From the NCBI GenBank assembly GCA_010015805.1, contig ML978131.1:930001-994000 (forward strand): a stretch of 64,000 nt of DNA, written 5' to 3'. The notes beneath the pieces were generated by a model, which was not told where the DNA came from, made no database searches, and saw nothing but the letters and a program-made list of their open reading frames with translations. The position numbers and the translations under genes are program-made. Positions 30,658 through 64,000 of this stretch are shown here, piece after piece (positions within the stretch are counted from its first letter, which is position 1; each line of letters starts with the position of its first letter). Origin of the DNA: Rhizodiscina lignyota. Its lineage: Eukaryota.

Positions 30658-31209
30658 TTTGGTGGTTAGAGCTGTGGGGGATGATTATGTGTGCAATTTG
30701 ATGAGATTGAGGAACTTTGAGAGTTTAGAGTGAAATTTGAGGGATAGGGAGACGGCCTGAGGAATCAATCGAAACTACGAGAGAGCAGTTGGAGGAGCTG
30801 GAAATCTTAAGGGAAACGGCTGCCTTATGCTACGTACTCAGCTCAGCTACGTCTCCGAGCATGGGAATGAGGGGATTGTGCATGACTCGTTCCGCTTGGA
30901 AGCAGCCAGGTCCTGAGGTCCACTTTTGGGCTCATCACAGGCTTCCTTCCCATTAATTTTCATCTGTTGTAGCTTGATGGAAGAACAATGGTGAGGAAGG
31001 GAGCAGAAGAGACGAACATTTGTTTCGATAGGTGCTGAAAGTGGGCACTTCCTGTTCAGTAAGCTGCGGCGCGCGAGTCATGATGATCAGAAATCGACGC
31101 GTCTGTGGAGCGTGTTCTTGCAGCCTCGTGTCATTCTTTGGCTCAAACCTGGATCTTTGGGGTCGCTAAGCTTTCGCTCACTGCTATCTGCTACTTAAGG
31201 CTCGTTGAT

Positions 31210-31773
31210 ATGACTATCCTTGTCGAACCGTACGATCGAGAATGGCCTCATCAATTCGCTGTCATTGCACTGGAACTGAAAAGAGCGCTCCAAGGTATTG
31301 ATATCATCAGCATCGAGCATGTAGGAAGCACTTCAGTCCCTGGACTTCACGCAAAGCCAATTCTCGACATTGACGTTATTGTCACGCGAGAAAATGTCAT
31401 GCCAGCCATTGGCGCTTTGGAGCGGAACCTGGAGTATGAAAACAAGGGCGAATGGGGCGTTCCAGAACGCTGGGCACTCCGCAAACCGTCTGCACTACCA
31501 GAGCGCAACCTCTACGTTTGTGTCGAAGGATGTCAGTCCCTTCGGAATCACCTTGGAGTGCGAGATGTGCTAAGGGCCGATCCCGCTTTACGAGACGAGT
31601 ATGGCAGAGTGAAGATGGAACTTAGTACCAAATACACGGATGTGAACGAATATTGCGAGGCAAAGAACGACATTCTGGAAAAGATTCTTAACAGGGCCGG
31701 GATGACTGAAGGCGATCGGAGAGCGGTCAAGCTTGCGAATACATTGAATCCATCCGCGGATGTGTTAACTTGA
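31210..31773 (+). CDS. GrpB/UPF0157 family protein (nucleotidyltransferase-like fold)
   Basis: VEPYDREWPHQF, IEHVGSTSVPGLHAKPILDID, RNHLGVRDVLR, EYGRVK, YCEAK; intronless. Confidence 0.9.
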   Translation: MTILVEPYDREWPHQFAVIALELKRALQGIDIISIEHVGSTSVPGLHAKPILDIDVIVTRENVMPAIGALERNLEYENKGEWGVPERWALRKPSALPERNLYVCVEGCQSLRNHLGVRDVLRADPALRDEYGRVKMELSTKYTDVNEYCEAKNDILEKILNRAGMTEGDRRAVKLANTLNPSADVLT

Positions 31774-37405: not shown

Positions 37406-40306
37406 CTACGAAATCACAGCCTCCCTGTATGGTGACAGAACAACTGCACCAACAACACCATAAGCCTGCCGTGTCGCGATACCATACACTGCCGGATCTG
37501 TTGTCCGCAGCCTGTTCAGCAGCGTTGATGCGAATTCAATCTCGATCGTATTCTGCCCCGACTTGAGGTATCGGCCAATATCGTGACTCGCCGCTGTCTG
37601 ATCTGACGACGTGATACGTTTGTCGTTCACAGTGATAGCGAACGAGCCGCCAGAAACAGTGAAGCTAATCATAGCTCCTGTGTCACTGGGCCAGCTTTTG
37701 CCTAGGTCGAATTTTGTTGTGTACGTTCCGATTCCAGAAACATCCTGCAGCTCTGTAATTTGGGACCACGGGAGAAGAGAAGACAGCTTGAGGCTGTGCT
37801 TCTTGATCACAGTTGAGCTGTTTGTGCTTCCTGGGACAAAATCTTGGACGTCTAATTGCCAGGAAGTCAAGTTGAGGCTCGCCGGCACAGTGCCAATTTT
37901 GCTGGCCACCTTGCGACCATTCTGCAACGTCGTTGTGTACGTTCCAGTCTTATTTGCGCGAATCTTCATCTTTAACCCATCATATCGCACTGATTGAGCT
38001 GTAGTACTTGTCGCATGATTGAGGAGACTCGCAAACGGCACCATGCTGATCATTGTCGATTGTCCCCCTTGCAGAGCCATGTGGAGTTGTATGCGATTAT
38101 CGGGTAACTCCCGATACAAAGCAATCGGAGTGATTTCTCCAGTCCAGAGATTCAGCAGCACGGGTCCTTGATCCAATGAGCGTCTGAGAATTGTAATATC
38201 GACAACGGCGGCCTCGCTAGTTGCTGCCACTGCTTTGGATGTTGCGCCTCCGACAAAGAAGTAATGATCCATCAAGCCGTCCTCACGATGAAGGTAAATG
38301 AGAGAAGAATTGTCGTACTGAACAGCTGGTGATATTCCGAGGTCAGCAACACAATTTGGCATATCAGCCCTTGAAGCGGCATTTACAACGCTCGGTTGCT
38401 GGAGTAGCTGCTTCACTGTGTTTGCTACTTGAGCGGCTTCAGAAAACTCGCTGAGTCCATAAGGTAACGGAGCTGACCAGTTCCCAATGGCCATTATCTT
38501 CAAGCCTTGCTTTGCGTATTGAAGCAACTTTTCGGCGGTGTCTAAAGGTAGACCTGTTTCTTGATTGGAAAAGGCGTCGCCTTCGAATGTCAAAAGCTCG
38601 AAGTTTGGACCCTTCGGCGCAAGACGTTTCTGTGACACAGTCGCTGTTGGTAGATCCAGAAGGCTCGGAGCTAGGAAATTCAAACTCCAGCCCGCTCTCA
38701 TACCATCTTGGCTGAAGTACGAGGCTCCGAACCCGGAGGCGATGTAGCCTTTCTGGCGCAGAAATGCCACGTCGTGCCGAGCAACACCTTTCCTCATCAT
38801 CATCTGAACACGGCCGAAGTACGTCGAGATGTCTTTTGCATGGACCCATTGAGGCTGACGCGGACCCCACGCCTCTGAATAACCGATTGATCCATGATAT
38901 GGAGAAAATGCTGCAAATCCGGGCCAAGGTGAAGTCGGAGCATCCTTGTATGCGAATCCGTGAAAGACGTTCATGTTGACCCCGGCTGCCATGGCCGGGT
39001 TGACAATCTTGAGCACCTGATTCCAAGTTTCGCTGTATGCGCCTCCGTTGACTGCTGCAGCTTCGCACGAAATTCTCTCGTGAAGTGCCATGTTGTTGCC
39101 TCCGGCTAGAGATCGAAAGTCGTCAAGATTCTTGAACCCAAGCGTTTCACCTTCACCGATGTCAAAAGCGGCTGCGGCAGCCATTGAATCAGTCTGAAGA
39201 CCATATGGTTGCACACGCAGACCCATGCCGAATCCATGTGCCCATTGTTTGACAATATCGACGTGGTCTGAGATGTATAGGTTTCCCATGACGGTCCAAT
39301 AATCGTTCAAAGCTCCACGCGTAATCTCCGAATTGCTAAACGCGAAGACTTGGTTTTCGTCTTCTCGAACAATGGCAGGAAGGATAGATGTGATGTCGTA
39401 ATTCATTTGGCTTTGGAATTCTGCAGGTAGATTTGGTGTCCAGAACGTAGTAGCGTCTAGCTCTAGAGAATCCTCGAATATGTTACCGCCATCAGATTTG
39501 AACCGACTACGAAGATCTTTGTAACTGAGGATATGATTGTCCCAATAACTGGTAATAGCATTACTGCCATCCTTGGAGAAATGATCGATAACATAGGCAG
39601 GCGGCACGGTGTGCGGTCCGGCTTCGGGCTGTTGACCACTACCACGGACTCTGTAAGATAGTAGTAACCAAGTGGCGTTCCCAGGTGGAGTCCACGTTAT
39701 ACGGCCGTTTTTCACGTTCTTCGTCAGGTCAATGAGACTGTCGTGATCAAGCAACACCGTCTTCGCACTTGGACTACTGGTCGAGTTGATGCGCCATGCT
39801 TGGAGGGCCAAGAGAGTTGCAGTTGTAACACCGCTCTCGGCAGCTTGAAATGGTGCTGGTATAGCATCGTCATATGTTGTTTCCCCGTGGACAACAGCCC
39901 TGCCGTGCACAAGCTCCTTCGCGGCTCCGACGCTGTTGGGCGTTATTGATGGGATGGCAGCTGGCCAGGAAGGTCCAATAGCTATATCAATCTGAAAGTC
40001 ATGTTTGCTCGCTTCATCAAGTGCTGCAGAAACGGCGTCCAGCCAAGGCGCGGTCCCCCATCCATGCCCGGCCGGGTCCAGAATTGAGCCATTGTCGATA
40101 CTATGATGGACGTCCTGTATCTCTGCTCCCCCAAACCCGGCTTTAGCCATTTGACTGACTTCAGCCCTGATCTCGGTAGTCGAGACTAGTCCGCCTGGGA
40201 GCCACCATCGAAACATTGGTCGCGCTGATACTGGAGGACTTGCAAAGGTTGAAAAGGAGGAAACGAGAGAAGGAGACACTGACTGAAAAGCTGATAGAGC
40301 CGCCAT
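37406..40306 (-). CDS. GH106 alpha-L-rhamnosidase-like glycoside hydrolase, intronless
   Basis: FASPPVSARPMFRWWLP, GFGGAEI, WGTAPW, DIAIGPSWP, IDHFS, FEDSLE, EGETLGF, ISCEAAA, GVNMNVFHG, WPGF and C-terminal jelly-roll VSGIGTYTTKF...LKSGQNTIEI. First ATG is at 40306 (the ORF track starts at TTG 40324). Confidence 0.85.
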   Translation of the reverse strand: MAALSAFQSVSPSLVSSFSTFASPPVSARPMFRWWLPGGLVSTTEIRAEVSQMAKAGFGGAEIQDVHHSIDNGSILDPAGHGWGTAPWLDAVSAALDEASKHDFQIDIAIGPSWPAAIPSITPNSVGAAKELVHGRAVVHGETTYDDAIPAPFQAAESGVTTATLLALQAWRINSTSSPSAKTVLLDHDSLIDLTKNVKNGRITWTPPGNATWLLLSYRVRGSGQQPEAGPHTVPPAYVIDHFSKDGSNAITSYWDNHILSYKDLRSRFKSDGGNIFEDSLELDATTFWTPNLPAEFQSQMNYDITSILPAIVREDENQVFAFSNSEITRGALNDYWTVMGNLYISDHVDIVKQWAHGFGMGLRVQPYGLQTDSMAAAAAFDIGEGETLGFKNLDDFRSLAGGNNMALHERISCEAAAVNGGAYSETWNQVLKIVNPAMAAGVNMNVFHGFAYKDAPTSPWPGFAAFSPYHGSIGYSEAWGPRQPQWVHAKDISTYFGRVQMMMRKGVARHDVAFLRQKGYIASGFGASYFSQDGMRAGWSLNFLAPSLLDLPTATVSQKRLAPKGPNFELLTFEGDAFSNQETGLPLDTAEKLLQYAKQGLKIMAIGNWSAPLPYGLSEFSEAAQVANTVKQLLQQPSVVNAASRADMPNCVADLGISPAVQYDNSSLIYLHREDGLMDHYFFVGGATSKAVAATSEAAVVDITILRRSLDQGPVLLNLWTGEITPIALYRELPDNRIQLHMALQGGQSTMISMVPFASLLNHATSTTAQSVRYDGLKMKIRANKTGTYTTTLQNGRKVASKIGTVPASLNLTSWQLDVQDFVPGSTNSSTVIKKHSLKLSSLLPWSQITELQDVSGIGTYTTKFDLGKSWPSDTGAMISFTVSGGSFAITVNDKRITSSDQTAASHDIGRYLKSGQNTIEIEFASTLLNRLRTTDPAVYGIATRQAYGVVGAVVLSPYREAVIS

Positions 40307-41735
40307 GATGAGATGTAAGACCAAATTGAGTCAGCTGCAAATGAGAGGAATGCGATCCTTTCTCCAGAGCGCTATAATAATCAACTGCCAGAACTGGAAC
40401 AGATATATGCTAATTACTTGCCCGTCAGGAGACCGGAAAATTGTGTCCGACGTCGCTATTTCCTGGGATTCTAAATGTTAGCCAAGCCATGCATGCAGAA
40501 AATGTGCTACAAGGTGAATGCAAGACGGGTGGGCATCTCCAATGAAGATATATCACTGACAAAGGTTAGTACAGCAACTTCTATTGCAAATCCGGCAGGC
40601 AAATAGTCCTTGAATTAGTATACTACCGGATCGAGAGGACACCTGGAAAGCTTTGCCGAGAGAACAGTTTGTCTCTGAGAGGAGATGAAGGCGGGCTGAG
40701 GCACAGTCCCCTCCACTGGTGCGGATACGAGTAGCCAAGACATCGCAGAATTCTAACATGGAGAGTTGGTTATATTCTAGCATAAGAATGTGAGAAGTTC
40801 GGGCCCATATCGCCCGGATTGTCCAGCATGAGCTGGTTAGGAGTCGCTTAACTTGGGGTAAGCAACCCCACGGGGTAGCTCTAGTACTGAGAATTTGAGA
40901 CTTCCGCGTGCCTGACGGGGGGATGCAAGCGAAGGGGAACGCATCCTGGTGGCCTGCAGTTGTCTTCAATAATACGAGATATGTCGAGGCTAATGACTAG
41001 CACCGTGGACATGAGGAATGATTAAATATAGGAGACGTCGTATCTGCGGAATTTCGGTGCAATGAACCCCGGACAATTCGATCGTACCTGCAGCGGCAGT
41101 CATGATCCTTGCCAGTAAAGATGAGAAGTGAACGGATGAAGTTCACCTCTCTGCAAAGCATGAATGATGAGTTTGACATTGCGTGAAAATGATGGCAGAG
41201 AAGTGGAGAAGATTTGCTTGACGCGAACTACACACGTCCAAAATTGTGACCATTCCGTTTATGGACTAGGCGCAACACGTCCAAGCGTCTGGCGTCTAGC
41301 ACCAAGGCCTATGCCTTCTATCAAATTATCAGTGTTGGCGTTACGATACGGAGTATCGTTGAGCTAGCCTCTGCGTTGGGTTCACTGTTGTATCCACAAC
41401 AATTCGAGGAGACATAGCCCTTATTCAAACTTCACAACATCAAGAAGGGAGCCTGCTTCAAGCTGTACCCAAACATGTGTCTACTTGGTATGTTGTGTAC
41501 TTTGCATTTTGCAATCATCATTACTGACTACTTGACTTGAGGATCTACCACCCTACGCCTCAATGTGTTGGTGTATGATTGCCCCCGCAAGCCAACACCT
41601 GCGACACTTGTTCAGTACCAAACTTCTCCCTAGCGATGGTGATGGGAACACAACAGCAGCACAGTCTCTTGACACATCTGCTACCAACGCCTCACAAGAC
41701 CCTTTCTGGATAACACAATAAGTGCCTGCTGTTTC

Positions 41736-43169
41736 TTAGAAAGACCCCAGGTGGAGATTGAAAAGCTGCATCGCCGCAGCTGTAATGGGCATAGCAGCGC
41801 CCACTAAATTCGCTTTCGACAACGCTTTTGCCTGTAATTGAAGTAAGAGGTGGAAAATCGCTTGTCAGTAACTGATTCGTATGGGCTGACATAAAAGAAA
41901 GCAAGCGTGAAATGCTCGACATACCAGTTTCTGACCGACGTCTTTAGCACCCTCGACGTCTTTGAGAGACCAAGTGGGCTTCTTCATCTTCGGTACATTC
42001 TCGATGAATTGCACATTAGATCCAGCGCCCTTGCTAATGATATCGTACATTAAATCAGTCTGCAAACCCACAGCTTCAGTAAAGCCCATGGCTTCAGCTG
42101 ATATTGCAAGATTCGCTCCTACGAAGATATCGATGATATCCTGGACAGTGATCTCGGGATTCCGTGGTACCACTGAATTCTCGCCTTTCGTCAATTGGTG
42201 TACAAGATGATCTGGATAACCAGGCAGATAGAGGCGCGTGAGGCGCGTATCGTCGTCCTTTATCCAGCCAGCATGTATGCCGGCCTGGAAGACCGTCTCC
42301 GCTGCTGCGGTTAGGAACACGGGAAAGTGCACAATGCGCGATTCGTTCACTATGATAGACTAGTAGCGATCAGCTGCGAATGCGACCTCAGAGTCGACGA
42401 GCCTTACTGTGTCCTTGTGGCTATTGGCCACGGCAGAGTAAATGCCATTATCTCCTTCAAGCATGTGTGGAATTCGATTCCCATTAACCCAGCTTGCGCC
42501 ATCACTGGCCTGCACTGCATCAAACACCTCCTGCGTATTCAGCCCGGCCCTTGCGGCAAGAGCCATTACCTCCGGTGCCAAACCGATTGCAACTTCTGCC
42601 GACACCTGATGGCACATTTTTGCTCTGGAGCCATTTCCGATGCCACCTGGAATCTTGTAGAGCTTGGCGCTCATAGCGTCGAGGACTGCATGAGCACTTG
42701 GAAGCTTCAAGCCTTCTTCTGGTCCGGAACTGAAAATCGAAAGAGTACCAGCGGCAGCACGAGGCGTTCCTCCGGAGACGGGACAGTCCAGCAAGTGTAT
42801 GTCGGACCGTTTATATTCGTTGTCGAGCCTTCCGCGCACTTCATTGGAATACTCCGGAGGCACGGTCGAGCTTATGATGATGATAGCATCTCGGGGAAGA
42901 GTGTTTATCGCTCCGGTGGTCTTTTCAAAGAGGACTTCTGTGACTTGGGAATGGCTTGTGACCATGATCACCAGGACTTCAGCATCTGCTGCAGCTTCAG
43001 CAGGTGAGGCTGCCGGCTTGCCTCCTGCCGCTACCAGCCTGTCTACAAAAGGCTTGTAGATGTCGAATCCCTTTACTATGAAATTCTGTTTCGCCAGCTG
43101 CATCGCCATACCACCACCCATAGCTCCAATGCCGCAAAATCCGACACGGGGATGTGTCTGACCTGCCAT
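41736..43169 (-). CDS. Beta-hydroxyacid dehydrogenase (LtnD/6PGD-NAD-binding family) with duplicated C-terminal helical domain, 3 exons
   Basis: VGFCGIGAMGGGMA, SSTVPP, LDCPVSGGTPRAAAGTLSI, GSRAKMCHQ (catalytic Lys); second helical repeat GANLAISAEAMGF...MYDIISKGAGSN; last exon AKALSKA...LHLGSF* ends at 41736. Confidence 0.9.
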
Positions 43170-43639
43170 GGTTACGATGTTTGAAGAAGGCGTACAGACG
43201 TCAGTAAAAGAAATTAGAGAGGTGAAGATTCATAAAATTAATGTTACACTCAGAATATTTTTTAGGGTCTTGCCTTTTCGAATGAGATCCTATTCATTTG
43301 CGATGCGGACCTGAATTGTCCGGGTGTCATGAGATTTGTGTTCCAGTGGCGGTTCAGTATGCAGCTCTTCGGCCTCTTCCCCGCTCGTACGGGTTGGATT
43401 TGTATGCCAATGACTCAAATGGCCGAGACAAATGATGCGTTCCTTGGATTCGACATTACGTCTTTTGTTGTCAGATTTGCACATTCTGATTGCCAGGTTT
43501 CGAGAAACGTTGCATAAAAAGCAATTTGTACTCTTTTTGGAACGTTGCTGCGTTTGTAACCGGGCGTCTCAGCCTTCCAAATTTCAGTCTCGCAGCACAA
43601 AACATAAGTACAAGTCTGCATTTTCGTCCTCTCGCGAGT

Positions 43640-44696
43640 ATGGGCCACGAAAGGCTCGAAAACAACAAGACCATTCAGATTCTTCGAGCGGCATCAAAGG
43701 GGAAATATGGAATTCCTGCTCCACTTGCGTATGTCACGGGGAAACCCAAGACGATAAAGTCAACTCTGTGATCACTAACCGAGACTCCAGGTTCAACATC
43801 GAACATATACTTGGCTTTGTGAAGGCGGCAGAACGAAAAAGATCGCCTCTCATCATCCAATTGTTCCCATGGGCAATTACTTGGTCCGATGGACTCCTTG
43901 TGCATGCGGCAGCACATGCCGCTCGCAATGCTACAGTCCCAATCGCTGTTCACCTCGATCACTGCCAGGAGGAATCAATGGTTAAAAGAGCCGCTGAGTT
44001 GCCGTTCGATTCGATCATGGTCGACATGTCACACCACTCCAAAGCGGAGAATCTCGCGAAGACAAAGCAATGGGTGGCGTATTGTCACGCACGTGGAAAG
44101 GCAACTGAAGCGGAGCCAGGCAGAATCGAAGGTGGCGAAGATGGAATAGCAGACACAGTTGATTTGAGTGGAGTAATGACTACTCAAGAAGAAGCGCAAC
44201 AGTTTGTCGAATCTGGTGTGGATATTCTCGCCCCAGCGTTTGGAAACGTTCACGGCGAGTATGGCCCTCGAGGAATCGTCCTAGATTGGGACAGGTGAGT
44301 TGAACCCCTCTCAGTCTTCGTATATTCCTTTATTTAATTTTCTCATATGAAGAGAATTCCTTAGCATTTTTGTCCATTCCATACGCTCCCATTATCAGAA
44401 AGGCTAATGAGACGAGCATCAGACTAGCGACCGTCCAAAAAATAACTAGTGCTGGCGATGTTCATCTTGCTCTTCATGGTGTCCTATTTTTCTCAGAGGA
44501 ATTGACAAGAAATCTGATTGAGGCTGGCATAACAAAAATCAACCTGAATCGCGACACCCTGGTAGATTATTACGATCACTTGAAGAAGAATGTTGGCAAG
44601 ATTCCTTTCACTCAGTTGTTAGAGGAAGCGGTAGAGGTGTTAGCAGAAGCAACGGGAAAACAAATGGATATTGCTCTCTCGACTGGCAAAGCTTGA
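43640..44696 (+). CDS. Class II (metal-dependent) fructose/tagatose-bisphosphate aldolase-family protein, 3 exons
   Basis: AASKGKYGIPA..|FNIEH, RSPLIIQLFP, VHLDHCQ, FDSIMVDMS, EAEPGRIEGGEDG, APAFGNVHG, LALHG, KINLN. Confidence 0.92.
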
Positions 44697-44879
44697 TGGA
44701 TTTGAAAGTATTGCTGTCTCCATCGAACACTGACACGTCTGCCTCTGCGGCAAATGTAGCAACGCTTGCACGTGTATTAACTTTATACGCCATTTATCAT
44801 GGGACCTTTCCTTCCATAAATGTCTCTTCGGCGAAAATGTGTTCGTATGTCTAGTTTCCATCTACACATGTGACCGATC

Positions 44880-46046
44880 TTAAGCCTGGATCCGAGCAGC
44901 AGTAGCGGAACGGCCTCTAATGCGAACGGGGCATTTGAAAATACCACCCGCATAACGTGCAGATTCCGGATACTTTTCGGGGTCCGATTCAGCTGCGCTG
45001 GTGATATAGAGATCCTCTCCAGCAAAGGCAGTGCACTGTGATTCCATGTTAGCCCATCCAGAACTAAAAGAGCCATGACTCTGAAAGTTCGAACAGAAGA
45101 TGCTATACAGTGATATTGCGAGTTGGTAATCGTATATCCCCTAGTACCTGTCCACTCGGCGAAACTCGAATCACTCGCCAGCCTCCGTAAAGAGCGATCC
45201 ACAAGTTACCATCCTCGTCCTGCGAGTGGCCATCGGGAACAGCACCTGGTTCTTCGACAGTGAAGAACGTTCGCTTGTTCGAAATTGAACCAGTAGCAGC
45301 GTCATAGTCGTATGCGAAGATGCTCTTCGTCGGCGAGTCGGTGAAATAAAAAGTCTTGTCATCTTTCGACCAGCTCATACCATTGGCAATTGTTACCCCT
45401 TCAATCATCCGATGAAAGCTCCCGTCGGTATCAAGTCTGAAAACAACAGCTATTCGATTGGTTTAGTTCAAACAAGAAATCCACGAGACGAGGGCCGACT
45501 TACCTTCGGGCGAGAATTTGGTGACCTGAGGATCGTTGATGGCGCTGATCCAGAATCTCCCTTGGCTGTCGACGGCTCCGTCATTGGCTCTCATGCGCTC
45601 TTCTTTGCTTTCTCTGAGCTCTTCCGAGTTCCAGAAGCGTTGGATATAGCGATACTCGTTGCTATTCTTCTTCGCGATGCCAATTCCATGCTTCCCACCG
45701 AACAGGAAACTGTCTCCAGATGACGCTAGTTCAGCGGTGATCCTTACACCCCAAAGATTAGTAAAAGGGTTTCTTAGACCTTGCATTCACTGCGACTTAC
45801 CCCATTGAGATTTCATACTCCACTTTCTGCAATGACGACGGTCCGACATTTAGGTCCACACGGAACACCGTCTTGTTCACAATATCTACGAAGCGCAATA
45901 TATTTGCATCTTTCTCCCAGTATGGGCCTTCCGAAAGGGCGCAATGGAGATCAAGGAATGGCTTTCATGTTATTGTGACGTTAGAACGCTCTATTGTCAC
46001 TAATTTTGCAATCAAGCCTCACCTCCGTTACCGTAAAACTTTGCAT
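44880..46046 (-). CDS. SMP-30/gluconolactonase/LRE family lactonase, about 5 exons
   Basis: MQSFTVTE|PFLDLHCALSEGPYWE, MRANDGAVDSQGRFW, IANGMSWSKDDKTFYFTDS, VPDGHSQDEDGNLWIA, NIT|CTAFAGEDLYITSA; TAA at 44882-44880. Confidence 0.92.
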
Positions 46047-46325
46047 GGCTCCCGTCAATTGACCCCACCAACAGACAATGACAATAAGTACAGCAGACTG
46101 GGAAGAGTACGGCGGCGATAAGGCGATCACGATATTATCGTGCGAGGCGAAGGAGTGAGGAAGTGATGTCGATGAGACAAATACTTAAATCATAAGTGCC
46201 GAATAGCATCCAAACTAGGCTTAGCGTATCACCCTTGATGATAGGTATACTCTCGTGCCCCTATTTCCCCTTCAAATTCGAAAAATTCCAATCGTCATTC
46301 AATTAGACATATACACATCGTCCAT

Positions 46326-47108
46326 TCAGATCCATCCTGCATCAACCCTAATGCTCTGACTCGTGACAGCAGAGCTGTCATCTGCAGCTAACCACAACGC
46401 CATTCTTGCTACATCGTCTGGCTGCAACATTCGTTTCACCGCCTGCCCCTTCAGGATATCTGCTTCGATCTCAGGTGTGTATATCTCTCGCTTCTGTTTC
46501 TCAGTCGCAATGGCGCCGGGCATGATACTATTGACTCTAATTCCCTTTGGTCCAAACTCTTCTGCCAGCGCTTTCGTCAACCCTACGATTCCGGATTTAC
46601 TCGAGACATAAGTAATGAGGCTAGGAACAGCAACCTCCCAGGAAATGCTCCCCATGTTGATCACAGAGGCAGACCCTCCAGTAAGCAATCCTGGCATTAG
46701 AGCCTGTGTGAGAAAGAAGACGTGTCGCAGATTCACTGCAATTCCTTGATCCCATTGTTCCTGAGTGACTTCCAACGTTGGTTGTCGAACATCATTGGCG
46801 GCATTGTTAACCAAGACATCAATACTAGGAGAGCTCTCTAGAATTTTGGCTGCTACTGGCTTCAATTCGTCGTCGATTTTCGTTACGTCGCATTGATGGT
46901 AGACAGGAGGATGTACCACGTTGCGGTCGCGTAGCTTTTGTATGAGCTCGGACGCAGCCTCAGAGAGAATGTCCAGTATCACCACTTTTGCACCTTGCGT
47001 TGCAAAGGCTTCTACCATCGAAGCTCCAATCCCAGTGGCTCCGCCGGAAATGACCACGATTCGACCGAAAAGGCTCGGATAAGTGGCATACTGTCCTTGA
47101 GCTGGCAT
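46326..47108 (-). CDS. Aldose 1-dehydrogenase-like SDR (Caulobacter XylB-like), intronless
   Basis: ATYPSL.GR.VVISGGATGIG, DVLVNNAAND.R, WD..IAVNLRH.FF.TQA, VINMGSISW, YVSSK, TEKQ...YTPE.EA.I...Q and VDAGW are colinear with the recalled XylB D-xylose dehydrogenase sequence. Confidence 0.85.
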   Translation of the reverse strand: MPAQGQYATYPSLFGRIVVISGGATGIGASMVEAFATQGAKVVILDILSEAASELIQKLRDRNVVHPPVYHQCDVTKIDDELKPVAAKILESSPSIDVLVNNAANDVRQPTLEVTQEQWDQGIAVNLRHVFFLTQALMPGLLTGGSASVINMGSISWEVAVPSLITYVSSKSGIVGLTKALAEEFGPKGIRVNSIMPGAIATEKQKREIYTPEIEADILKGQAVKRMLQPDDVARMALWLAADDSSAVTSQSIRVDAGWI

Positions 47109-47450
47109 TTTCTGGGAGACTTTGGCCGTCTATGACAGCATTATCGGCTTTGAAATACAGGACATAAATTGAAGATTCTCGACATACCAATAAGCCCCGC
47201 AGCCGTTGGGTTAATTATTGTGTTTCTCTTCACGGCTCTGTTGGCAACTTTGTCATGTAGATATACCCAAAGTGGCTTAGCGACGACAACAGTTCTGCAA
47301 GGTGTCGGCCCGAGTTGAACGGCTCGAGGATCGTCTGTATTTTCGCGTCTTCTCCATATTTATTCTGTCACATGTTCCGGGAAAATTCCCTTGATGTGTG
47401 AACACCTCGTCAGCTATTGAACTATCCAATTACCCTACAGGACGCACAAT

Positions 47451-48506
47451 ATGGCGGATCAGACAACCTCCGCAGCTCCAAAGCCTTACAAGGGCAAGCT
47501 TGGAATTGTGACAGGGGGGTCACGGGGTCAGTCCGACTGAGATATATCGAGGTACGATGTTCATTGTGTGCCTTCTGATGCGTTTCAACAGGAATTGGAG
47601 CAGCCGTTGCACGAAGGCTAGCCGCAAAGGGCTGCGCGCTTCTCCTCGTCTACACATCGGAATCTTCGAAGCCGTTGGTTCACCAGCTCTGCAGCGAGCT
47701 GCTATCTTCGCACAAGATCCCCTGTTCATACGTTCAGGCCGACCTGTTGCATTCGGAAGAAGCGGCGGCGCAAATCATTGAAGCAGCAAAGCATTTCTTC
47801 GCGTCTTACAACCCAAATGGCCAATTTCAAGTCGATATTCTGATCAACAATGCCGGAGTATCCTCAAACCAGCATTTGAATGATCCCAAACGTGGCCCGA
47901 TCAATGCTGCAGAATTCAACAGAGTGTATGAGGTGAACGTGCTAGCACCTTTGCTTCTGACGCAGGCGGTTGCACCATTCCTGCCAAAGGATCGCTCGGG
48001 TCGGATCGTGAATGTATCGAGCGTTTCTTCATCCATCGGGTACCAGGGCCAATCAGTATATGCGGGCAGCAAGGCAGCCATCGAATCAATGACGGTAGGC
48101 TCTCTTATATTATACACAGATACCCCAGACCTTTGCTAATTTGCTCTGCGTAAAGCGCTGCTGGAGTAGAGAGTTGAGCTCCCAGGCAACAGTGAATGCG
48201 GTGAACCCTGGCCCGGCATGGGGCGACATGTATGCAGAAGCTGGCCAAACGTTTTGGGATATCAATCAGCCATATGTTGATGCGGCTCCTCTCGCAGACT
48301 ATCATGGAGAACCTGAGGTGAAGGAAATGGCAGGCGAGGACTTCGAGAGATTCGACAAGACTGTAAGAGAAAATATGGGCGGGCAGAGGCCAGGATTCAC
48401 TCATGAGATAGCTGGAACAATTGACATGCTTTGCTCAGAGGAAAGTGGTTGGACCACAGGTAGTGTTATCTGTGCAAATGGGGGCATGAAGATGTCAATT
48501 GCATAG
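47451..48506 (+). CDS. Short-chain dehydrogenase/reductase (FabG-like), 3 exons
   Basis: KGKLGIVTGGSRG|IGAA, DILINNAGV, GRIVNVSS, YAGSK, VNAVNPGP, WTTGSVICANGG. Confidence 0.9.
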
Positions 48507-48908
48507 AGATTCATTACTATGAGAGGAGCCTGTTGAATCTCCTTAGCTGTACGTGTGTATGAGAAACCTCGAGATTCGAATTCTGTGTACAGATTGGTCA
48601 TATCGCTTACCATTGCATCCAAGGCGTAACTTTTCAAGGATCTCTGATACGGAGGTTGTCAAACCAATAATAGAGGAAGAAAAGATGGAGTGCCCCCCGC
48701 ACGGAATCCGCTACGACACACACCACGACATAGCTCTTGCACTGTTTCTTTTTCATTGCACATAAACTTCAAGAAGATTCCACGTTCAAAAAGATCACAT
48801 ATATTCCGTATTCATTAAGTAAATAAATCAATAGTGTGGATTAAACGTGTCCGGCATCGCATTCCTCGAAACAAGACATTCAACATTGACGCAGCTGTTC
48901 ATTCGAAG

Positions 48909-50028
48909 ATGTCTATAGAACGAAAGGGATTGAGCGGGTATAGCGGCAAAGTTAACATTTTGAATACTGGGGCAGCCATACCAGCAATTGGCTTAGGGAC
49001 ATTTCAAGATCCCGACGAGCAAGAGATGTCGGTCTATACAGCTTTGAAACTTGGGTACAGGCACATCGATACAGCCCACAAGTGCGTCTCCTTGAAATTA
49101 ACAGCAATATGGCGTCAGCATGAGACACTGATTTGCTCTAAACATAGCTATGGCACTGAGCAGCAAGTTGGCAGAGGGATCAAGCGTAGCGGCATACCAC
49201 GAGAGCAAATATTCTTAACGACGAAGCTCTGGTGTAACGCTCACCACCCGGATGATGTTGAACCAGCATTGGATGCATCTTTGAGAGACTTGGATACTGA
49301 TTATGTCGATTTGTATCTTATGCACTACCCATGCGCATTCAAGCGTGGAGATAATTTCCTTCCCTTCGATTCCAATGGAAGGATGATCACCGACACTACA
49401 CCATTCATCGAGACCTGGAAAGCAATGGAGAAGCTGTTGGAGACCGGGAAGACCAGGGCTATTGGCGTCTCAAACTTTAGCCAAATTGAAATTGATAAGA
49501 TACTGAATGAAGGCAATGTGGTAATCTCCCATTCCATCATGAATCTGCCCGAAACTAGGCATTGACTCTGCTCGTTCTTCTCCATAGGTACCAGCCGCTC
49601 ACCAAATGGAGCTACACCCGTACTTGCAGCAAAGGGATTTTGTCAATTGGCATAAGTTGAAAGGAATCCACCTCATCCAATTCAGTCCTTGCGGTAATCT
49701 CAACGACTTTTACCGAGAGGTCTCTTGGGGGAAGGAAATTGCCAAGATGGCGCGTCTGGTCGACCACTCGACTTTGTTGGAGACAGCAAAGAGACACCAG
49801 AAATCTCCAATCCAAGTTGCATTGGCATGGGGTGTTGCTAATGGCCGCTCGGTTATCCCGAAGAGCACCATCGAGTGGCAGATCAAACAGAATCTGGAGG
49901 CTGATTTCGAATTGAGCGATGAGGATATGGATGCGATTGCGAGCATGGATAAGAAAGCTCGGTTTAACGATCCCAGTGCGGACTTTGGTTATAAGCTATA
50001 CGTCGGCTTGGAAGGCGCGGCTCTTTGA
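48909..50028 (+). CDS. Aldo-keto reductase, 3 exons
   Basis: LNTGAAIPAIGLGT, GYRHIDTA, YGTE, TTKLW, DLYLMHYP, IGVSNF, QMELHPY, SVIPKS. Confidence 0.93.
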
Positions 50029-50056: not shown

Positions 50057-51725
50057 TCATATTTCATCAATGTATTTCCTCGTTATGTTTCTAGTGCCGC
50101 TTTCCGTTCCTTCCGTCCAGGCTACGGTCCAGTTCGTTCCCGGACATACAAGCTGCGCAATCTCTCTCCAGACCCGCCAGTGTTGCACAAAGAGCGGATG
50201 GGTATCTGGGTGCGTTTTCTTGATCTGTGAGTCTGCATCAGTGCCAGCTTCGACGCATTCGGATGAGTTGACCAACCTCCTCGACCTTTGCCGACCATGG
50301 TTTCCCGCCGAATGTGAAATGTAGAGCGTACGAAACACGATGGAGATCATACAGCGGTGCGTCTAGTTCTTTTTTGTTTATCTCCTCTTTCTTCGGTTGC
50401 TCAGGAGGCTGCTGCATGTCAGGTTGTTCTGTGGCTTCGTGATGTTCCTGTTCGCTTGCAATCTCTGATCCATCCTTTTTCTCGTCTTTAGCTTTGTCCT
50501 GTTTCTCATACTGCTCGCTGTTGCCATTTTCAATTTGATTACTCTCTCCCGGCCTGGGTTCATCTACAACACCATCTTGTGGTCCATCTCCTCGTGGCTC
50601 AGAAGGCATCTGTGTGCCCGACACATCGTTTTTCTCCGGTTGGTTCGCAGATGCGTCCGACTCTGTCTGACGCTTGAAAATTGTCCTTTCAGCTGAGTTT
50701 TCCTGGTCCTCTTCTGTTTCTGCGTCGGTCTTCCATTTCTTGATAGCAAATTCCAGATTGGCAAGCTTCCGCAATTCTTTTGCATCTTGTTTCACGAAGC
50801 CAGTCTTCCCAGTTGTACGGCCTATCTCCTCCATGACTTTAATTTCCTCAGGTCGAAACCAGTCTGGCACCGTCCACTCTGCCCAATGACTATTGAGCGC
50901 CGCATAGCTGCCAGGCAGCACCACTACCGTCTTCCCAAGGACTTTGTTTACAATGTCCATGTCGTATACGTCCTTCTTGACTTTCTCGAGGCTCTCTTTG
51001 ATCTGAGCCCATAGGCGATCGCTTGGGCAGATAAGGAGGAACGTTGAAGCGACTGCATCTTTACCAACCCAGTAAGCGCGAGGCGCAGCTAGGTCCACTG
51101 GTGGCAGCTCAAAGATGTGATCGAGGTTTCGGAGGATTAGTTGATCGGCCTCAAGGGAAAGAAGACGCTTGACGGTCGGATCGATCTGGTGCATTCTGAA
51201 GGAGAGGAGCTTTAATAGGCAACCATCGTAATATAAATTACTCCCTTCTGCGATTTTGGGAGGCTCTTCCGTAATGATTGTAGCATTGAATTTGCGGAAA
51301 GCTTGGAGAAACCTTTCCGAAATAACCGGGGTGACAAGAACGAAGACTCGGTGTCGTGTTCGAAAAACGTTTACGAGGCGGTCGATGTTGACGAGTACAG
51401 CGCAGGCGTAATCGTCTTGCGTAGCATAGAAGACGAATGCATACGGAGAAGGTTCTTGCGGTATCGGCTTCGGGCGGTGCTCCGTGACACTCGCAGAGGT
51501 ATGATTTCCTGATTCGGTGCTGTTGGATGAGCATAACGCGACTTGCTCTTTGTCCTGACCAATTGACAAATAGTCCGGGAAAATCCAAGATGATGTCCAA
51601 TTTCCGCGTGGAATATGTGCCCACCCATGCAAGTTGGGGCGGACATTCGTGACGCGGATGACAAACGACAAGCACAAGAATAATAGTAGAACCACTCCAA
51701 CGCCACGGAAAGATCGAACCAGCAT
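50057..51725 (-). CDS. Glycosyltransferase family 8, GNT1-like N-acetylglucosaminyltransferase, type II membrane, 2 exons
   Basis: TM anchor, YAFVFYATQDDYAC, LLKLLSF, LEADQLILRNLDHIFELP, APRAYW, YDMDIVN, HFT..GKPW; an intron after VEE joins HPLF..WR..A..VCP, ending at 50057. Confidence 0.85.
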
Positions 51726-53396
51726 TGCGAATAGAGATTGAATAAGATGCGAGATAATTTGAGAAGAGATAGAGCGCACTATGTAAGTGTAGAAGAAAGG
51801 GATGACGCGGGGAATGGAAGGAGAGCTCCTGTGGAATTCGCCATCATACCAGTCTGTCAAATCGAGCGAAATATGCTTCTATGACGAAAAATGAGAGTTC
51901 AATGATTGCAACTGAGTCTTCGCACAATTCTACTCCGTAAGCTTGTCTGGTTTCATTGGCGCTTTGGCACCGCCACGGTATACGTGGTTGGATGATGCTG
52001 TTCACCGTCCTGATGCTCTGCGGGGTGGAGCTCAATCCGGTGACAGATAAGGCGCGTAAGTCTCATTAAATTTTAGTTTGAGGCATATGTTATACTTGGA
52101 GGTCGTAGTCGGAAGTGAATTGCTTGCGGAAGAGCTATCCGGACCTTTTCGTGTCTATTTTTAGAACTCGGTGATTTCCTTCCTTCCTTTTTCCCAAGCC
52201 GTCAGCGAACTTCACTTCTCAACTCTATTCTTCTAAATAACCATAAGATCTAAACTGGACACGATATTTAGTCACTGAAAGAGACTTTCAGCAGCTTTAG
52301 TTGTACAAACCTTCTCACTATGACTGTCTCATTACGCAAACTCTCCTTCTCCATAAAGGTTCTCCCTTATCCGCTACGGTCCATCTTCTTCTGATTTGTT
52401 CATTGATACCGAACTTTGGGGTTGTACTTTGCTATATTCTCTCAGGATGGCTTTCTTATCTCACATGGGGTTCATTTTCGCTTAAGCTCACAAACAGTAT
52501 GGCGACGTGACAGCACAGCTGTTTGCCTTCATACCCGCCCCGCCACATCGGCTCACGAAACGCGTATGTACCTTGAGGTGCTGCTTGAAGACACACAATT
52601 GCTGCCGTCATTTATTTGGATGCTTTCTCTACTCATCACCGGTTTAGACGGAATGAGACACCGCACAGTCTTCGCCAACTCAAGCGGGAGGCTCGATCCG
52701 CTGCATGGTTTTCATCGGGCCGCCATTTGATCATGGCAGTGACTGCAGAGCACGCAAAGTTTAGGTGGTAGCAAAAACTTTTGTGTTTGATCAAACTACT
52801 CCCCGTGAGATATCCTTGGTACCCTGGGCACTGTACGCAGGATCACGTATCCAACTCTGTGCTATCTCTTGGTGCAAATAAGGTGAAGATGGCCCATTGC
52901 AGTACTAAATATGGGGTCGATTTAACCTTAAACTCAGATGATCGTTCCGGCTGCACTGGCCGTCGTACAAGGAGCACGGATATTGGGAAAGTCTACGACT
53001 GAGTCAACACATCCTTTCCGCTCCATTATCTGCTCACATCAATTCTATTACAATTGCTGTTTTCGGCTCCCGGTCAATAGCATCAGCAATCTCATCGGCA
53101 TAAGAATTTGTACCGGTGGCAGTGCAGGCAATCCACGCCGATGGACAATTACTGCCACCCTTGCCACGACATACTCCAAGGGGGGCTGCTCAGATATATA
53201 TATGCAAATCATCTCAGAGGCTAATGCGTATCTACTGACCAAGAGTTTGTCATCGTCATTCCTTAGATTTCCAGAGCTCTTTCTGTCCAACTTTGGTTTT
53301 CTTGCACACGATATCGATCAGTCTGGTTTAACAAGCTTTGCATGCCGTTTCGATCCTCCACGTTTACCAAGAGAAGATACCTAGTTTCATCAAAGC

Positions 53397-61629: not shown

Positions 61630-64000
61630 TCAGTGATGTTTGTGGTAGTTCTCGGGACTCGTTCGTCCCTCTTCGTGTGGTGATGGAGGAGCGTCAATGG
61701 CGTCTCTCGGCTGCTCTCTATTCGGTTCTCTGGGACTCGATTCCCTAGTCTCTTTCGGCGATGTCTGCTGAGAAATCTTCTTGCCTTCATCTTCGCTTGT
61801 GCTCGCGCTGCTCTCACCCGACTCGATACCCATCATAGCGGCATCCTTAGACTCCTTACGAAGTCGGTCTGCCTTGCCTTGTAATCTCGTCGCCTCCTCC
61901 GCCGCTCGCTGGGCACGTACCTGCTTTCTCCACATGCTGGCATATCGTCCTCTCTTTGCCAAGAGCTCATCGTGAGATCCGCGCTCGGCGACCCGGCCCT
62001 CATGCAAGACTAGGATCTGGTCTGCCCTAACAATGGTGCTGAGTCTATGCGCGATGATGAGCATTGTTCTGCCCTGGCCAAGCGTTGTCAGAGCGTCTTG
62101 GATGTGCTGCTCCGTCTCAGTGTCTAATGCAGCGGTAGCCTCGTCCAGCAGGATAATGCGAGGGCCTTTGAGAATCGTGCGTGCGATAGCAACACGCTGC
62201 TTCTCACCCCCGGACAGTCTGAGGCCGCGGTCGCCGACCTTTGTCTCATATCGGTCGGGGAATGCCATAATCTTGTCGTGGATGCTGGCAGCCCGGCACG
62301 CTTCGTAGACCTCCTCGTCTGACGCGCCGGGGTTGGCATATTTGAGATTGTACATCAGGGTTTCGTTGAAGAGAACTGTGTCCTGAGGGACGACGCCAAT
62401 GTGCTTTCGCACTGATTCGATTGATAGACCTTGGACATCATGGCCGTCAACTTGGATGCTGCCGTCTTCAGGGTCATAGAAGCGGAACAATAACCTGAAG
62501 ACAGTCGACTTTCCGCCTCCAGACTCACCGACCAAGGCAGTTGTTGTGCCTGGTTGGCAATCAAAGTCTAGACCCTTAAGAGCCGGCTTCCTCCCATCGT
62601 ACGAGAACTTGACGTCGTCGAAGCGAATGTGGCCTTCACAGAAAGGTAATTCTTGCACTCCCGGCTTGTCGATCACAGTTGGTTGTTCCTTGAAAAGTTC
62701 TAGCATCCGCTCCGAGTTAATCAGCGATGACTGTATCACGCGGTAGAATGTTCCGAAGTAGTTGAGTGGCGACTGCAGCTGCGCCATGTACGTCAGTAGC
62801 GTGACGAACTTGCCCACTCGGAGCTGGTCGGTCGTGACTTGATAAGCGGCGATGAAGCATGTTATCATAAGGCCAATCATGAAGATGGAGTTTTGAGAAA
62901 CGTTCATCAGGTTCAACGACAGCATGACCTTGTACTCAGCGGACTGATACATGTCGACTGCCCTCCGATACCGTCTGAACTCGTAGTCTTCGGCATTGAA
63001 GTACTTGACAGTTTCGTATGACACCATGGAGTCGTTCCTGGCACGTGTTAGAGCTTTAGAGAACATTAGAACATTACGAAACTCACTTGACAGCGTCTTG
63101 TTCTCTGTCTGCATTGACCATGACGCGTCGAATTTCGGCCCTCCACTGTGCCATGCGAATGGTCAAATAGATGTACCAGAACACAATGACCGCGACCACG
63201 AGCGCGTAATAGGCGTCAAACGCGATCAAGAAGTAAGCGACGGCCACGAACATATCCACGATGATCGGGACGACTTGAAAAGTGACCTGTTCCAAGAATG
63301 TGTTGATAGAGCTACCCTTTCCCATCGCAGACAGTACTTCTCCGGTCTTCTTGCCAAGGTGAAAGTCGAGGCTCAAGCTGTGGACATGTTCGAACGTCGC
63401 GATTGAGAGTTCTCTGTACGAGTACTGTCCCACCGGTATCCAGAGTACGGCTCGAGCGGCTCCAAGGATGCCATTATTGCCCTGCAGGAAGCGGTACACG
63501 ACGTACAGGACGATGGCCGTCCATGGCATGCGCACTTCGCCATTCTCACCAGAGAGATCATCTGTAATTAAACCGACTTGGTATGGGACTAGCAAGTTCA
63601 GTCCTCGTTGCAGGATCACGATCAGGACGCAGAGAACCACGACAAGTTGGAGCTTTCGGTCTTTCGATGGCCAGAGGTATGGCAGGAAAATGGAGTAGCC
63701 ACGAATGTACTCCCACCACGTCCGCGAGGGTATCTGAGTTGGTCGCACCCAACTTGGTTGTTCTTGTTCCTCGGGGCTACCCTTGCTCGCTGTGCCATAC
63801 CCATGACCGTTTGCACTTCCATTGGGAAAGCCGTTCGGCGTCTGTTGACCCGACAACAAGCCCGTCGTCTCTTCTGCGTCAGCTCTCTGTTGTTTAACTC
63901 TTGCTACAACTAGGAAAAGTACGTAGAAGCCAATCAGGGCACCGAGGAGGAGGATACGGAGTATGTCCAGAACCACCTCGGCAATCTCCCACTTGGACGC
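61630..64000 (-). CDS. HMT1: Heavy-metal tolerance ABC half-transporter (HMT1/ABCB6-like), 5' end outside the window
   Basis: PYLWPSK, FEHVHSLSLDFHLGKKTGEV, SYETVKYFNAE, Walker A GESGGGKST, signature LSGGEKQR, Walker B ILLDEAT, H-loop IAHRLST; intron ~63039-63086. Confidence 0.92.

Follow-up and report, generated by a model that had tools for sequence, protein, structure and literature searches.

In a 64,000-nt stretch of the genome of Rhizodiscina lignyota (GenBank assembly GCA_010015805.1, contig ML978131.1, positions 930,001 to 994,000 of the forward strand; hereafter the window), six contiguous intron-bearing enzyme genes, here called G1 to G6, were found at positions 41736-50028. They are predicted to encode an LtnD-like beta-hydroxyacid dehydrogenase (G1), a class II aldolase-fold protein (G2), an SMP-30/gluconolactonase-family lactonase (G3), an XylB-like aldose 1-dehydrogenase belonging to the short-chain dehydrogenases/reductases (SDRs; G4), a second SDR (G5) and an aldo-keto reductase (AKR; G6). 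It is plausible that G1 to G4 were inherited together and serve the catabolism of a free aldose, as judged from the functions of their families and from the conservation of the four-gene block. The four genes probably form one route that works without a dehydratase, in which G2 would cut a non-phosphorylated oxo-aldonate. To our knowledge, such a route from aldose through aldonate and oxo-aldonate to C-C scission, with neither a dehydratase nor a phosphorylated intermediate, is absent from known catabolic maps, and the open-access literature searched neither described such a fungal pathway nor gave a function for the clade of aldolases to which G2 belongs.

When metagenome contigs were scanned with an aldolase alignment, 307 matches were confirmed, and the 80 best loci among them were retained. 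One of these loci, L001, carries HIBADH (-), aldolase (+), SGL (-) and SDR (-) genes in the order and orientation of G1 to G4 by tblastn, with identities of 68%, 77% (77-81% for the aldolase), 68% and 63%, respectively. When the comparison was reversed, homology between the window and L001 was confined to 41736-47099, except for one weak DUF3425 match. The block in L001 is flanked by Sugar_tr, Fungal_trans regulator and Aldose_epim (aldose 1-epimerase) genes, a setting typical of a sugar catabolic cluster. Because L001 keeps both order and orientation while its surroundings differ, we conclude that G1 to G4 are a co-inherited unit and more than a chance adjacency. No orthologue of G5 was found by tblastn in any of the 80 loci, L001 included (the best cross-matches being 25-30% identical), and G6 likewise has none, the only matches being of 24-27% identity in L040 and L052. 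G5 and G6 adjoin the core as candidate members of the cluster. The earlier note, made from the letters of the stretch, had treated all six genes as one pathway unit; this holds for the aldose dehydrogenase, lactonase, LtnD-like dehydrogenase and aldolase, which co-occur in L001, whereas the second SDR and the AKR fall outside the conserved block.

Genes were found by examining stop-to-stop open reading frames (ORFs) with Pfam, and GT..AG introns were modelled by a script that restored the frame and the family alignment. The window is fungal in character, with short GT..AG introns interrupting the frames and with Zn2Cys6 and Fungal_trans domains present. All six predicted proteins are uninterrupted, with no internal stop (Table 1), and their SDR, AKR, HIBADH and SGL motifs, inspected by eye, are intact. 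The outer ends of the cluster are the stop codons of G1 and G6. The same ends had been given in the earlier note, and the ORFs, Pfam matches and intron models bear out its description of six contiguous enzyme genes that include two divergent pairs (start codons 470 bp apart in G1/G2 and 342 bp apart in G4/G5). The gaps between the genes measure 184-402 bp, G1/G2 apart, and therefore leave no space for a further gene inside the cluster. The G1/G2 intergenic region is presumed to be a shared promoter. No 8- to 10-mer was common to at least four of the seven intergenic regions of the window and L001, and the G1/G2 region shares no k-mer of 8-10 bases with L001 or the remaining promoters of the cluster; CGG..CCG pairs show no pattern in their distribution.

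The family assignments made in the earlier note (LtnD-like, class II aldolase, SMP-30, XylB-like, SDR and AKR) are upheld as best matches. G1 consists of a HIBADH core with an additional C-terminal NAD_binding_11 repeat. Its first exon of 254 aa had the L-threonate dehydrogenase model NF043037 as its top NCBIfam match (202.9 bits against a cut-off of 350; HIBADH 133.8), and the LtnD-like partner in L031, at full length, reached 300.8 bits, also under the cut-off. The top solved relative of G1 is PDB 3g0o (E 1.7e-32). A second NAD_binding_11 stretch was observed in all LtnD-like partners of the fungal aldolase, namely those of the window, L031, L034 and L069; the last three are encoded by uninterrupted ORFs of 459-502 aa, compared with about 430 aa for the window model. 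To judge by these sequences, the second stretch is a feature of the subfamily of LtnD-like partners. For full-length G4, the top NCBIfam model was D-xylose 1-dehydrogenase XylB (NF053674) with 290.1 bits against a cut-off of 400, the next model scoring 185, and its PDB matches include sulfoquinovose 1-dehydrogenase 9gwu (E 4e-56). The labels LtnD-like for G1 and XylB-like for G4 are thus fair as best matches. G3 matches Pfam SGL on two exons (E 1.9e-37 and 5.9e-08), and its predicted protein contains the motifs SEGP, NDG, ANG and PDG, which we take to hold the metal-binding Glu, Asn, Asn and Asp of SMP-30/gluconolactonase. Its solved relatives are regucalcin, luciferin-regenerating enzyme and the Smp-30/Cgr1 family protein 7plb. 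The PDB search returned no solved relative of G5 at E 1e-15 or better, and the top solved relatives of G6 are AKR1A aldehyde reductases (E 8.5e-36).

G2 shares the PF01116 fold with class II ketose-bisphosphate aldolases such as FbaA, GatY/KbaY, SqiA and YdjI. Pieces of its exons align to the Pfam profile at positions 24-191 (E 1e-53) and 186-277 (E 5e-11), and G2 keeps the three zinc histidine motifs HLDH, GNVHG and LHG, aligned with solved aldolases, as well as the GGEDG loop. Unlike these aldolases, however, it lacks the residues of the 1-phosphate pocket. In YaSqiA, according to the accessible part of the report, zinc is bound by His83, His180 and His208, and Ser211 and Thr233 anchor the 1-phosphate through their side chains, with backbone amides also contributing (PMC10665668). 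At the corresponding sites, where AgaY, YdjI and the fusion proteins described below have HG(A/G)S and NxxT, G2 reads HGVL and NLNR, with L and R as the equivalents of Ser211 and Thr233. Among the 79 of the 80 loci whose alignment spans both sites, the Ser is kept in none and the Thr in none, and the Thr position is Lys or Arg in 75; in the fusion and bacterial aldolases compared, HG(A/G)SG and NxxT are mostly kept. Both phosphate-binding side chains have thus been lost across the fungal aldolase clade, and the loss of the pocket fits a non-phosphorylated substrate.

The closest solved relative of G2 by far is PDB 3pm6, named 'putative fructose-bisphosphate aldolase' (E 5e-67 over exon 2 and 3e-10 for the C-terminal exon), which has the same altered motifs, HGADPF and NVNR. 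In a quick maximum-likelihood tree with SH-aLRT support only, all 81 fungal-type sequences stand apart from 8 outgroup sequences (support 100). Among them, 24 rows with the motif HGADPF make up subclade A and 55 rows with HGTN make up subclade B, and the window and L001 sequences pair within subclade B (support 98). By its motif, 3pm6 belongs to the fungal clade, in subclade A, which is linked to LtnD-like genes, whereas G2 lies in subclade B. A HMMER scan with exon 2 of G2 over 1.84 billion representatives gave matches of at least 50% identity that were all shorter than 525 aa and are taken as fungal-type orthologues; next came long proteins 37-46% identical to G2, and bacterial aldolases at 36-45%. 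Pfam analysis of 13 long matches found NAD_binding_2/11, SBD_N/NBD_C (DUF1537) and F_bP_aldolase in five, and DUF1537 domains with aldolase in three more, the G2-like region being the C-terminal domain of the fusions. This points to the 2-OtnC domains of LtnD-DUF1537-aldolase fusions as the nearest non-fungal relatives of the G2 clade. All curated NCBIfam aldolase models score far under their cut-offs (for example, 193.9 against 343 for the full-length clade member of L031), and an ESM Atlas search returned generic bacterial class II aldolase clusters with a score of about 0.90.

Scanning prokaryote genomes with the aldolase alignment gave seven loci, one of them 69% identical and six 33-39% identical. 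The first of these, L081, is a contig of 2.4 kb assigned to an uncultured Stigonema metagenome-assembled genome. It probably consists of fungal (perhaps lichen) DNA that ended up in the wrong, cyanobacterial bin. Two database proteins join a further domain to the fungal-type aldolase, a terpene synthase C-terminal domain in P0129 and an SDR in P0149. Both are likely merged models of adjoining genes, and P0149 hints at another SDR-aldolase adjacency.

The absence of a dehydratase and of a kinase, as claimed in the earlier note, was confirmed by several searches. The Pfam scan of the window covered 114 ORF pieces (13 + 32 + 69, the 69 being selected from 138 ORFs of at least 85 aa after ORFs overlapping longer ones were dropped). 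No IlvD/Edd, enolase-type, amidohydrolase, DHDPS, DUF1537, FGGY or Dak domain was found in these pieces, although short exons could escape such a scan; the sole kinase is a protein kinase at the start of the window. In addition, Pfam scans of the window and L001 found neither KdxD nor KGSADH. A tblastn search with seven DUF1537 domains at E 0.01 or better gave no match in the 80 loci and the window (823,747 bases), and neither SBD_N nor NBD_C appeared in any Pfam scan of the window or the loci. No dehydratase family was detected among the 292 locus ORFs scanned with Pfam or in L001 (24 ORFs). Only 37 of the 80 loci are at least 8 kb long, and absences in short loci carry little weight. The earlier note had reasoned that the cluster would be a fragment of a known pathway if its homologues always included a dehydratase or a kinase; among the neighbourhoods covered here, DUF1537 occurs in none of 80, and the ORFs scanned contain no dehydratase, which speaks for the note on these two points.

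Three known types of pathway are comparable to this cluster. The first is the three-step route from L-threonate to dihydroxyacetone phosphate, which, in the available portions of two reports, proceeds through LtnD, the DUF1537 kinase 2-OtnK and the F_bP_aldolase-type 2-OtnC, all three being fused in the plant LTD protein (PMC12540250, PMC12994016). As in that route, so far as the portions describe it, an LtnD-like enzyme adjoins an F_bP_aldolase-family protein, and a 2-hydroxy sugar acid would be oxidised before a C-C bond is cut at a zinc enediolate. Unlike it, the G1-G2 block has neither a DUF1537 kinase nor the phosphate-binding Ser/Thr, G1 carries the additional NAD_binding_11 repeat, and the pair is linked both to a lactonase and to an aldose dehydrogenase, so that the starting compound would be a sugar and not a free acid. 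By neighbourhood, G2 has the LtnD-like companion of a 2-OtnC, whereas the DUF1537 companion is absent from the window and the 80 loci. G1 and G2 therefore read as an LtnD/OtnC-type pair without its kinase. The second is the upper part of the Weimberg and Dahms pathways (XylB and XylC), which goes from aldose to lactone to aldonate; here G4 has XylB as its best model (below the equivalog cut-off) and G3 has the SMP-30 relative 7plb, and the cluster differs in lacking IlvD/Edd or any other sugar-acid dehydratase as well as KdxD and KGSADH, in the window and in L001. The third is the fungal LRA-type pathway, from which G1-G6 differ in having no IlvD/Edd or enolase-superfamily dehydratase.

Two fungal systems were considered and set aside. 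In the Trichoderma reesei L-fucose system, as far as the accessible text goes, the FDH1 enzyme (protein 60517) acts together with LGD1 and LGA1 (PMC12370193), whereas the relative of G4 is a different gene, 4682, which is not named in the open-access literature searched. The Weimberg pathway of Myceliophthora is, in the sections available, an engineered bacterial one, and the native XDH belongs to the Trxyd1 family (PMC9869559); it has no bearing on the cluster.

To see which genes recur beside the aldolase clade, we clustered the ORFs of the 80 loci and applied Pfam to representatives and to whole loci (the 292 ORFs mentioned above), together with tblastn. Four pairs of loci are near-identical (L040/41, L063/64, L069/70 and L076/77), and independent counts are lower than those given here. 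SDR genes were found in 27 of the 80 loci (24 by tblastn), Zn2Cys6 regulators in 26, LtnD-like dehydrogenases with two NAD_binding_11 stretches in 17 (16 of subclade A, and L001), Sugar_tr in 12-13, other MFS proteins in nine, and Epimerase-family dehydrogenases in five. SGL lactonases occur in five loci besides L001; in these five (L012, L023, L067, L072 and L073), lactonase and aldolase stand together as different paralogues. AKR genes unrelated to G6 are present in four loci (L031, L034, L040 and L052). In the window and in L031 and L034, an AKR gene is adjacent to the pair of dehydrogenase and aldolase; in L040 and L052 it lies within about 6 kb. One locus, L073, has a 2-hydroxyacid dehydrogenase of the hydroxypyruvate-reductase family adjoining SGL and the aldolase.

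Enzymes that would process a ketose also recur: a Dak1/Dak2 kinase adjoins the aldolase in four loci (L002, L069, L070 and L075), RpiB occurs in three (L014, L069 and L070), TIM in two (L069 and L070), and an FGGY kinase in one (L023). These neighbours suggest that a ketose product is phosphorylated afterwards, and the kinase-free character of the route may hold only up to the C-C scission. In L069, and in the near-identical L070, an LtnD-like gene and a subclade A aldolase lie directly beside Dak1/Dak2, RpiB-type and TIM-type genes, and the Dak kinase of L069 passes the glycerone-kinase equivalog cut-off. L023 contains a large sugar cluster around a subclade B aldolase, with a zinc alcohol dehydrogenase, two sugar transporters, a regulator, several SDRs, the FGGY kinase and an SGL lactonase divergent from the aldolase. 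A Dak-type kinase (EYK1) together with TpiA-like and RpiB-like isomerases forms the erythritol/erythrulose cluster of Yarrowia lipolytica, as given in the part of the report at hand (PMC5992420). The trio in L069 and L070 resembles it, and single members are found in L002, L014 and L075. Unlike that cluster, the window cluster and L001 have no such trio nearby, so any connection with the window cluster would be by family analogy.

From comparative genomics, we infer the reactions, the substrate and any role of G5 and G6 as follows. G4, probably preferring NAD, would oxidise C1 of an aldose to give an aldonolactone, which G3 would hydrolyse to the aldonate. G1 would then oxidise the aldonate to a 2-oxo-aldonate (or possibly a 3-oxo-aldonate), and G2 would break a C-C bond of this non-phosphorylated oxo-aldonate at its zinc site. 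If G2 works as 2-OtnC does, the carbonyl would move from C2 to C3 through a metal-bound enediolate and C1 would leave as CO2, and the product would be a ketose one carbon shorter: erythrulose from a pentonate, or dihydroxyacetone from L-threonate. A Dak-type or FGGY kinase from another locus would later phosphorylate the ketose; alternatively, an AKR or SDR, for instance G6 or G5, would reduce it to a polyol.

Such a decarboxylation by G2 is our tentative preference, at somewhat less than an even chance. It is preferred because the nearest characterised relatives of G2 (2-OtnC) do so, because the Dak, RpiB, TIM and FGGY neighbours would process a ketose, and because Otn-type enzymes accept C4 to C6 acids; the portion of PMC12994016 available describes these enzymes as acting on C4 to C6 acids to give ketose phosphates one carbon shorter. 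As candidate sugars we consider D-xylose, L-arabinose, D-glucose, D-galactose and D-fucose, because their aldonates match L-threonate in the configuration C2(R),C3(S); the substrates of LtnD-type enzymes were taken from the same portion of that report (PMC12994016). A GH106 gene of the alpha-L-rhamnosidase family lies just upstream of the cluster and hints at rhamnose-containing polymers as a possible source of substrate. L-rhamnose itself, which this gene brought to mind, was not adopted: the GH106 gene is not conserved with the block, having no match in any of the 80 loci, L001 included. Moreover, L-rhamnonate does not have the C2(R),C3(S) configuration of LtnD-type substrates.

Several observations weigh against a single dehydratase-free route, or against a decarboxylation within it. 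The complete block recurs in only one of the 80 loci, and the combination is rare. No gene for a transporter, regulator, mutarotase, Dak, RpiB or TIM lies near the cluster in the window. Both G1 and G4 stay under the curated NCBIfam equivalog cut-offs, and the intron models of all six genes are unverified predictions from sequence. The identity of G2 to 2-OtnC-type domains barely exceeds that to bacterial class II aldolases. In addition, G2 reads VLFF where its closest relative, in L001, has VNKF, and may be inactive or further diverged. The Lys/Arg conserved where the phosphate was once bound would be suited to a carboxylate such as that of hydroxypyruvate, which favours a retro-aldol cleavage or a phosphate bound in another way. 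The AKR neighbours in the window, L031, L034, L040 and L052, and the 2-hydroxyacid dehydrogenase in L073, fit aldehyde and hydroxypyruvate products equally well. Dak kinases also act on glyceraldehyde, and therefore the Dak neighbours do not discriminate between decarboxylation and retro-aldol cleavage.

A retro-aldol last step, as proposed in the earlier note, is one of two chemically sensible readings, and we regard it as rather unlikely. In that case, G2 would be a true aldolase that cleaves a 2-oxo-aldonate between C3 and C4 into hydroxypyruvate and an aldehyde, with the C1 carboxylate in the place of the 1-phosphate and the substrate bound like a ketose bisphosphate. The aldehyde would be glycolaldehyde from a pentonate, glyceraldehyde from a hexonate, or lactaldehyde from a 6-deoxyhexonate, and an AKR or SDR would reduce it. 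On chemical reasoning, the product of an LtnD-type enzyme is already an analogue of a ketose 1-phosphate, so no isomerisation would be needed, and G2 keeps the zinc histidines and the aspartate of HLDH. The exchange of Thr for Lys/Arg (Arg in the window), the AKR genes by the dehydrogenase-aldolase pair and the dehydrogenase of L073 would also be in keeping with it. However, the nearest characterised relatives of G2 are 2-oxo-tetronate-4-phosphate decarboxylase domains and not free-acid aldolases, and the open-access literature searched contains no report of a 2-oxo-aldonate cleaved by a class II PF01116 enzyme. The RpiB and TIM neighbours (L014, L069 and L070) and the FGGY neighbour (L023) would be left unexplained, conservation of the block does not extend to G5 and G6, and neither a glycerate kinase nor a hydroxypyruvate reductase was found in the window or L001.

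It is unlikely that the genes belong to no single pathway, being chance neighbours, or two separate pairs, or including in G2 a decaying copy. In the version with two pairs, G1 and G2 would serve a small acid such as L-threonate, and G3 and G4 would oxidise a sugar or detoxify lactones. Fungi have very many SDR and AKR genes, and the window contains at least two more SDR genes; it is rich in oxidoreductases, and therefore the chance level of SDR/AKR adjacency is higher. The single recurrence of the four genes, the lack of conservation of G5, G6 and GH106, the unusual VLFF at the active-site loop of G2, and a promoter search without a shared motif are all compatible with such an arrangement. 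Against it stand the order and orientation kept in L001 amid differing surroundings and sugar-uptake genes, the pairing of lactonase and aldolase in five further loci with different paralogues, and six gene models that remain open with their SDR, AKR, HIBADH and SGL motifs intact.

Finally, the route could be phosphorylative after all: the substrate of G2 would be a phosphorylated oxo-acid or a ketose phosphate held by the new Lys/Arg, its DUF1537, Dak or FGGY kinase would be encoded elsewhere, and the locus would represent a fragment of an Otn-like route. Phosphate is commonly bound by Lys and Arg, Dak or FGGY kinases adjoin the aldolase in five of the 80 loci, the characterised PF01116 enzymes met here all use phosphorylated or sulfonated substrates, and the search for a kinase in this genome covered the window, so a distant one is possible. 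We consider this quite improbable, since DUF1537, which in bacteria and plants is adjacent or fused to LtnD and 2-OtnC, is missing from the window and from the surroundings of all 80 loci, the clade as a whole has lost the two side chains that bind phosphate, and 75 of the 80 loci, many of them short, have no such kinase.

The positions of all features are listed in Table 1. Besides the cluster and the uninterrupted GH106 ORF (974 aa; PF17132, E 3e-36), the window contains two further SDR genes and genes for a cytochrome P450, a GrpB-family protein and an ABC transporter. Directly downstream of G6 lies an ORF of 546 aa, which has a long acidic low-complexity C-terminal part and no Pfam match at E 0.001 or better.

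Table 1. Positions of predicted genes, Pfam-matching ORFs and other features in the window and in related loci
Feature	Position	Strand	Details
G1, LtnD-like beta-hydroxyacid dehydrogenase	41736-43169	-	predicted 430 aa; exons 43169-42408, 42359-41925, 41831-41736
G2, class II aldolase-fold protein (PF01116)	43640-44696	+	predicted 288 aa; exons 43640-43728, 43791-44294, 44423-44696
G3, SMP-30/gluconolactonase-family lactonase	44880-46046	-	predicted 306 aa; exons 46046-46023, 45961-45801, 45742-45504, 45449-45109, 45035-44880
G4, XylB-like aldose 1-dehydrogenase (SDR)	46326-47108	-	predicted 260 aa; single exon
G5, second SDR	47451-48506	+	predicted 309 aa; exons 47451-47526, 47592-48094, 48156-48506
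G6, aldo-keto reductase	48909-50028	+	predicted about 328 aa; exons 48909-49081, 49148-49520 (or 49148-49517), 49588-50028
ORF of G1	41865-43229	-	NAD_binding_2 with NAD_binding_11, then a second partial NAD_binding_11
ORF of G2	43414-44696	+	F_bP_aldolase, PF01116
ORF of G3	45103-45786	-	SGL, PF08450
ORF of G4	46326-47129	-	adh_short
ORF of G5	47579-48506	+	adh_short
ORF of G6	48819-50028	+	Aldo_ket_red
Second NAD_binding_11 stretch of G1	41736-42359		
G1/G2 intergenic region	43170-43639		presumed shared promoter; coordinates from gene models
G4/G5 intergenic region	47109-47450		coordinates from gene models
SDR gene	16715-17221	+	
SDR gene	26995-27942	-	
GrpB-family protein	31087-31770	+	
Cytochrome P450	34662-36186	-	
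GH106 ORF	37409-40330	-	
ORF downstream of G6	50241-51878	-	
ABC transporter	61633-64000	-	
LtnD-like partner, L031	7672-9057		second NAD_binding_11 stretch
LtnD-like partner, L034	5845-7221		second NAD_binding_11 stretch
LtnD-like partner, L069	7838-9343		second NAD_binding_11 stretch
LtnD-like, aldolase, Dak, RpiB-type and TIM-type genes, L069	7838-15680		
Sugar cluster around aldolase, L023	2208-19310		

The cluster would thus be an Otn-type acid-sugar module that has neither its kinase nor the phosphate pocket and is joined to an XylB/XylC-type upper pathway. A broader possibility, which we regard as doubtful, is that filamentous fungi have a widespread zinc aldolase-fold family of OtnC/ketose-bisphosphate aldolase stock acting on non-phosphorylated oxo-aldonates, which, with an aldose dehydrogenase, a lactonase and an LtnD-like dehydrogenase, would form a further oxidative pathway beside those of Weimberg, Dahms and Watanabe. 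That this further pathway leads from a pentose (D-xylose or L-arabinose) to erythrulose, or to hydroxypyruvate and glycolaldehyde, with no dehydratase and with phosphorylation last, is an equally tentative proposal. The automatic names 'D-xylose 1-dehydrogenase', 'sulfoquinovose 1-dehydrogenase' and 'FBP (fructose-bisphosphate) aldolase' on these fungal genes should be treated as putative. If the proposed route is true, fungi would possess an oxidative route for a plant-biomass sugar with neither a dehydratase nor a phosphorylated intermediate before C-C scission. It would also give a function to a sizeable fungal family (the 307 confirmed metagenome matches) that is now annotated as 'fructose-bisphosphate aldolase' and includes 3pm6, and could supply enzymes for converting pentoses to C4 ketoses and polyols (erythrulose and erythritol) or to hydroxypyruvate and glycolaldehyde. 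Moreover, it would illustrate the way in which a class II aldolase had its phosphate pocket remodelled for an unphosphorylated substrate.

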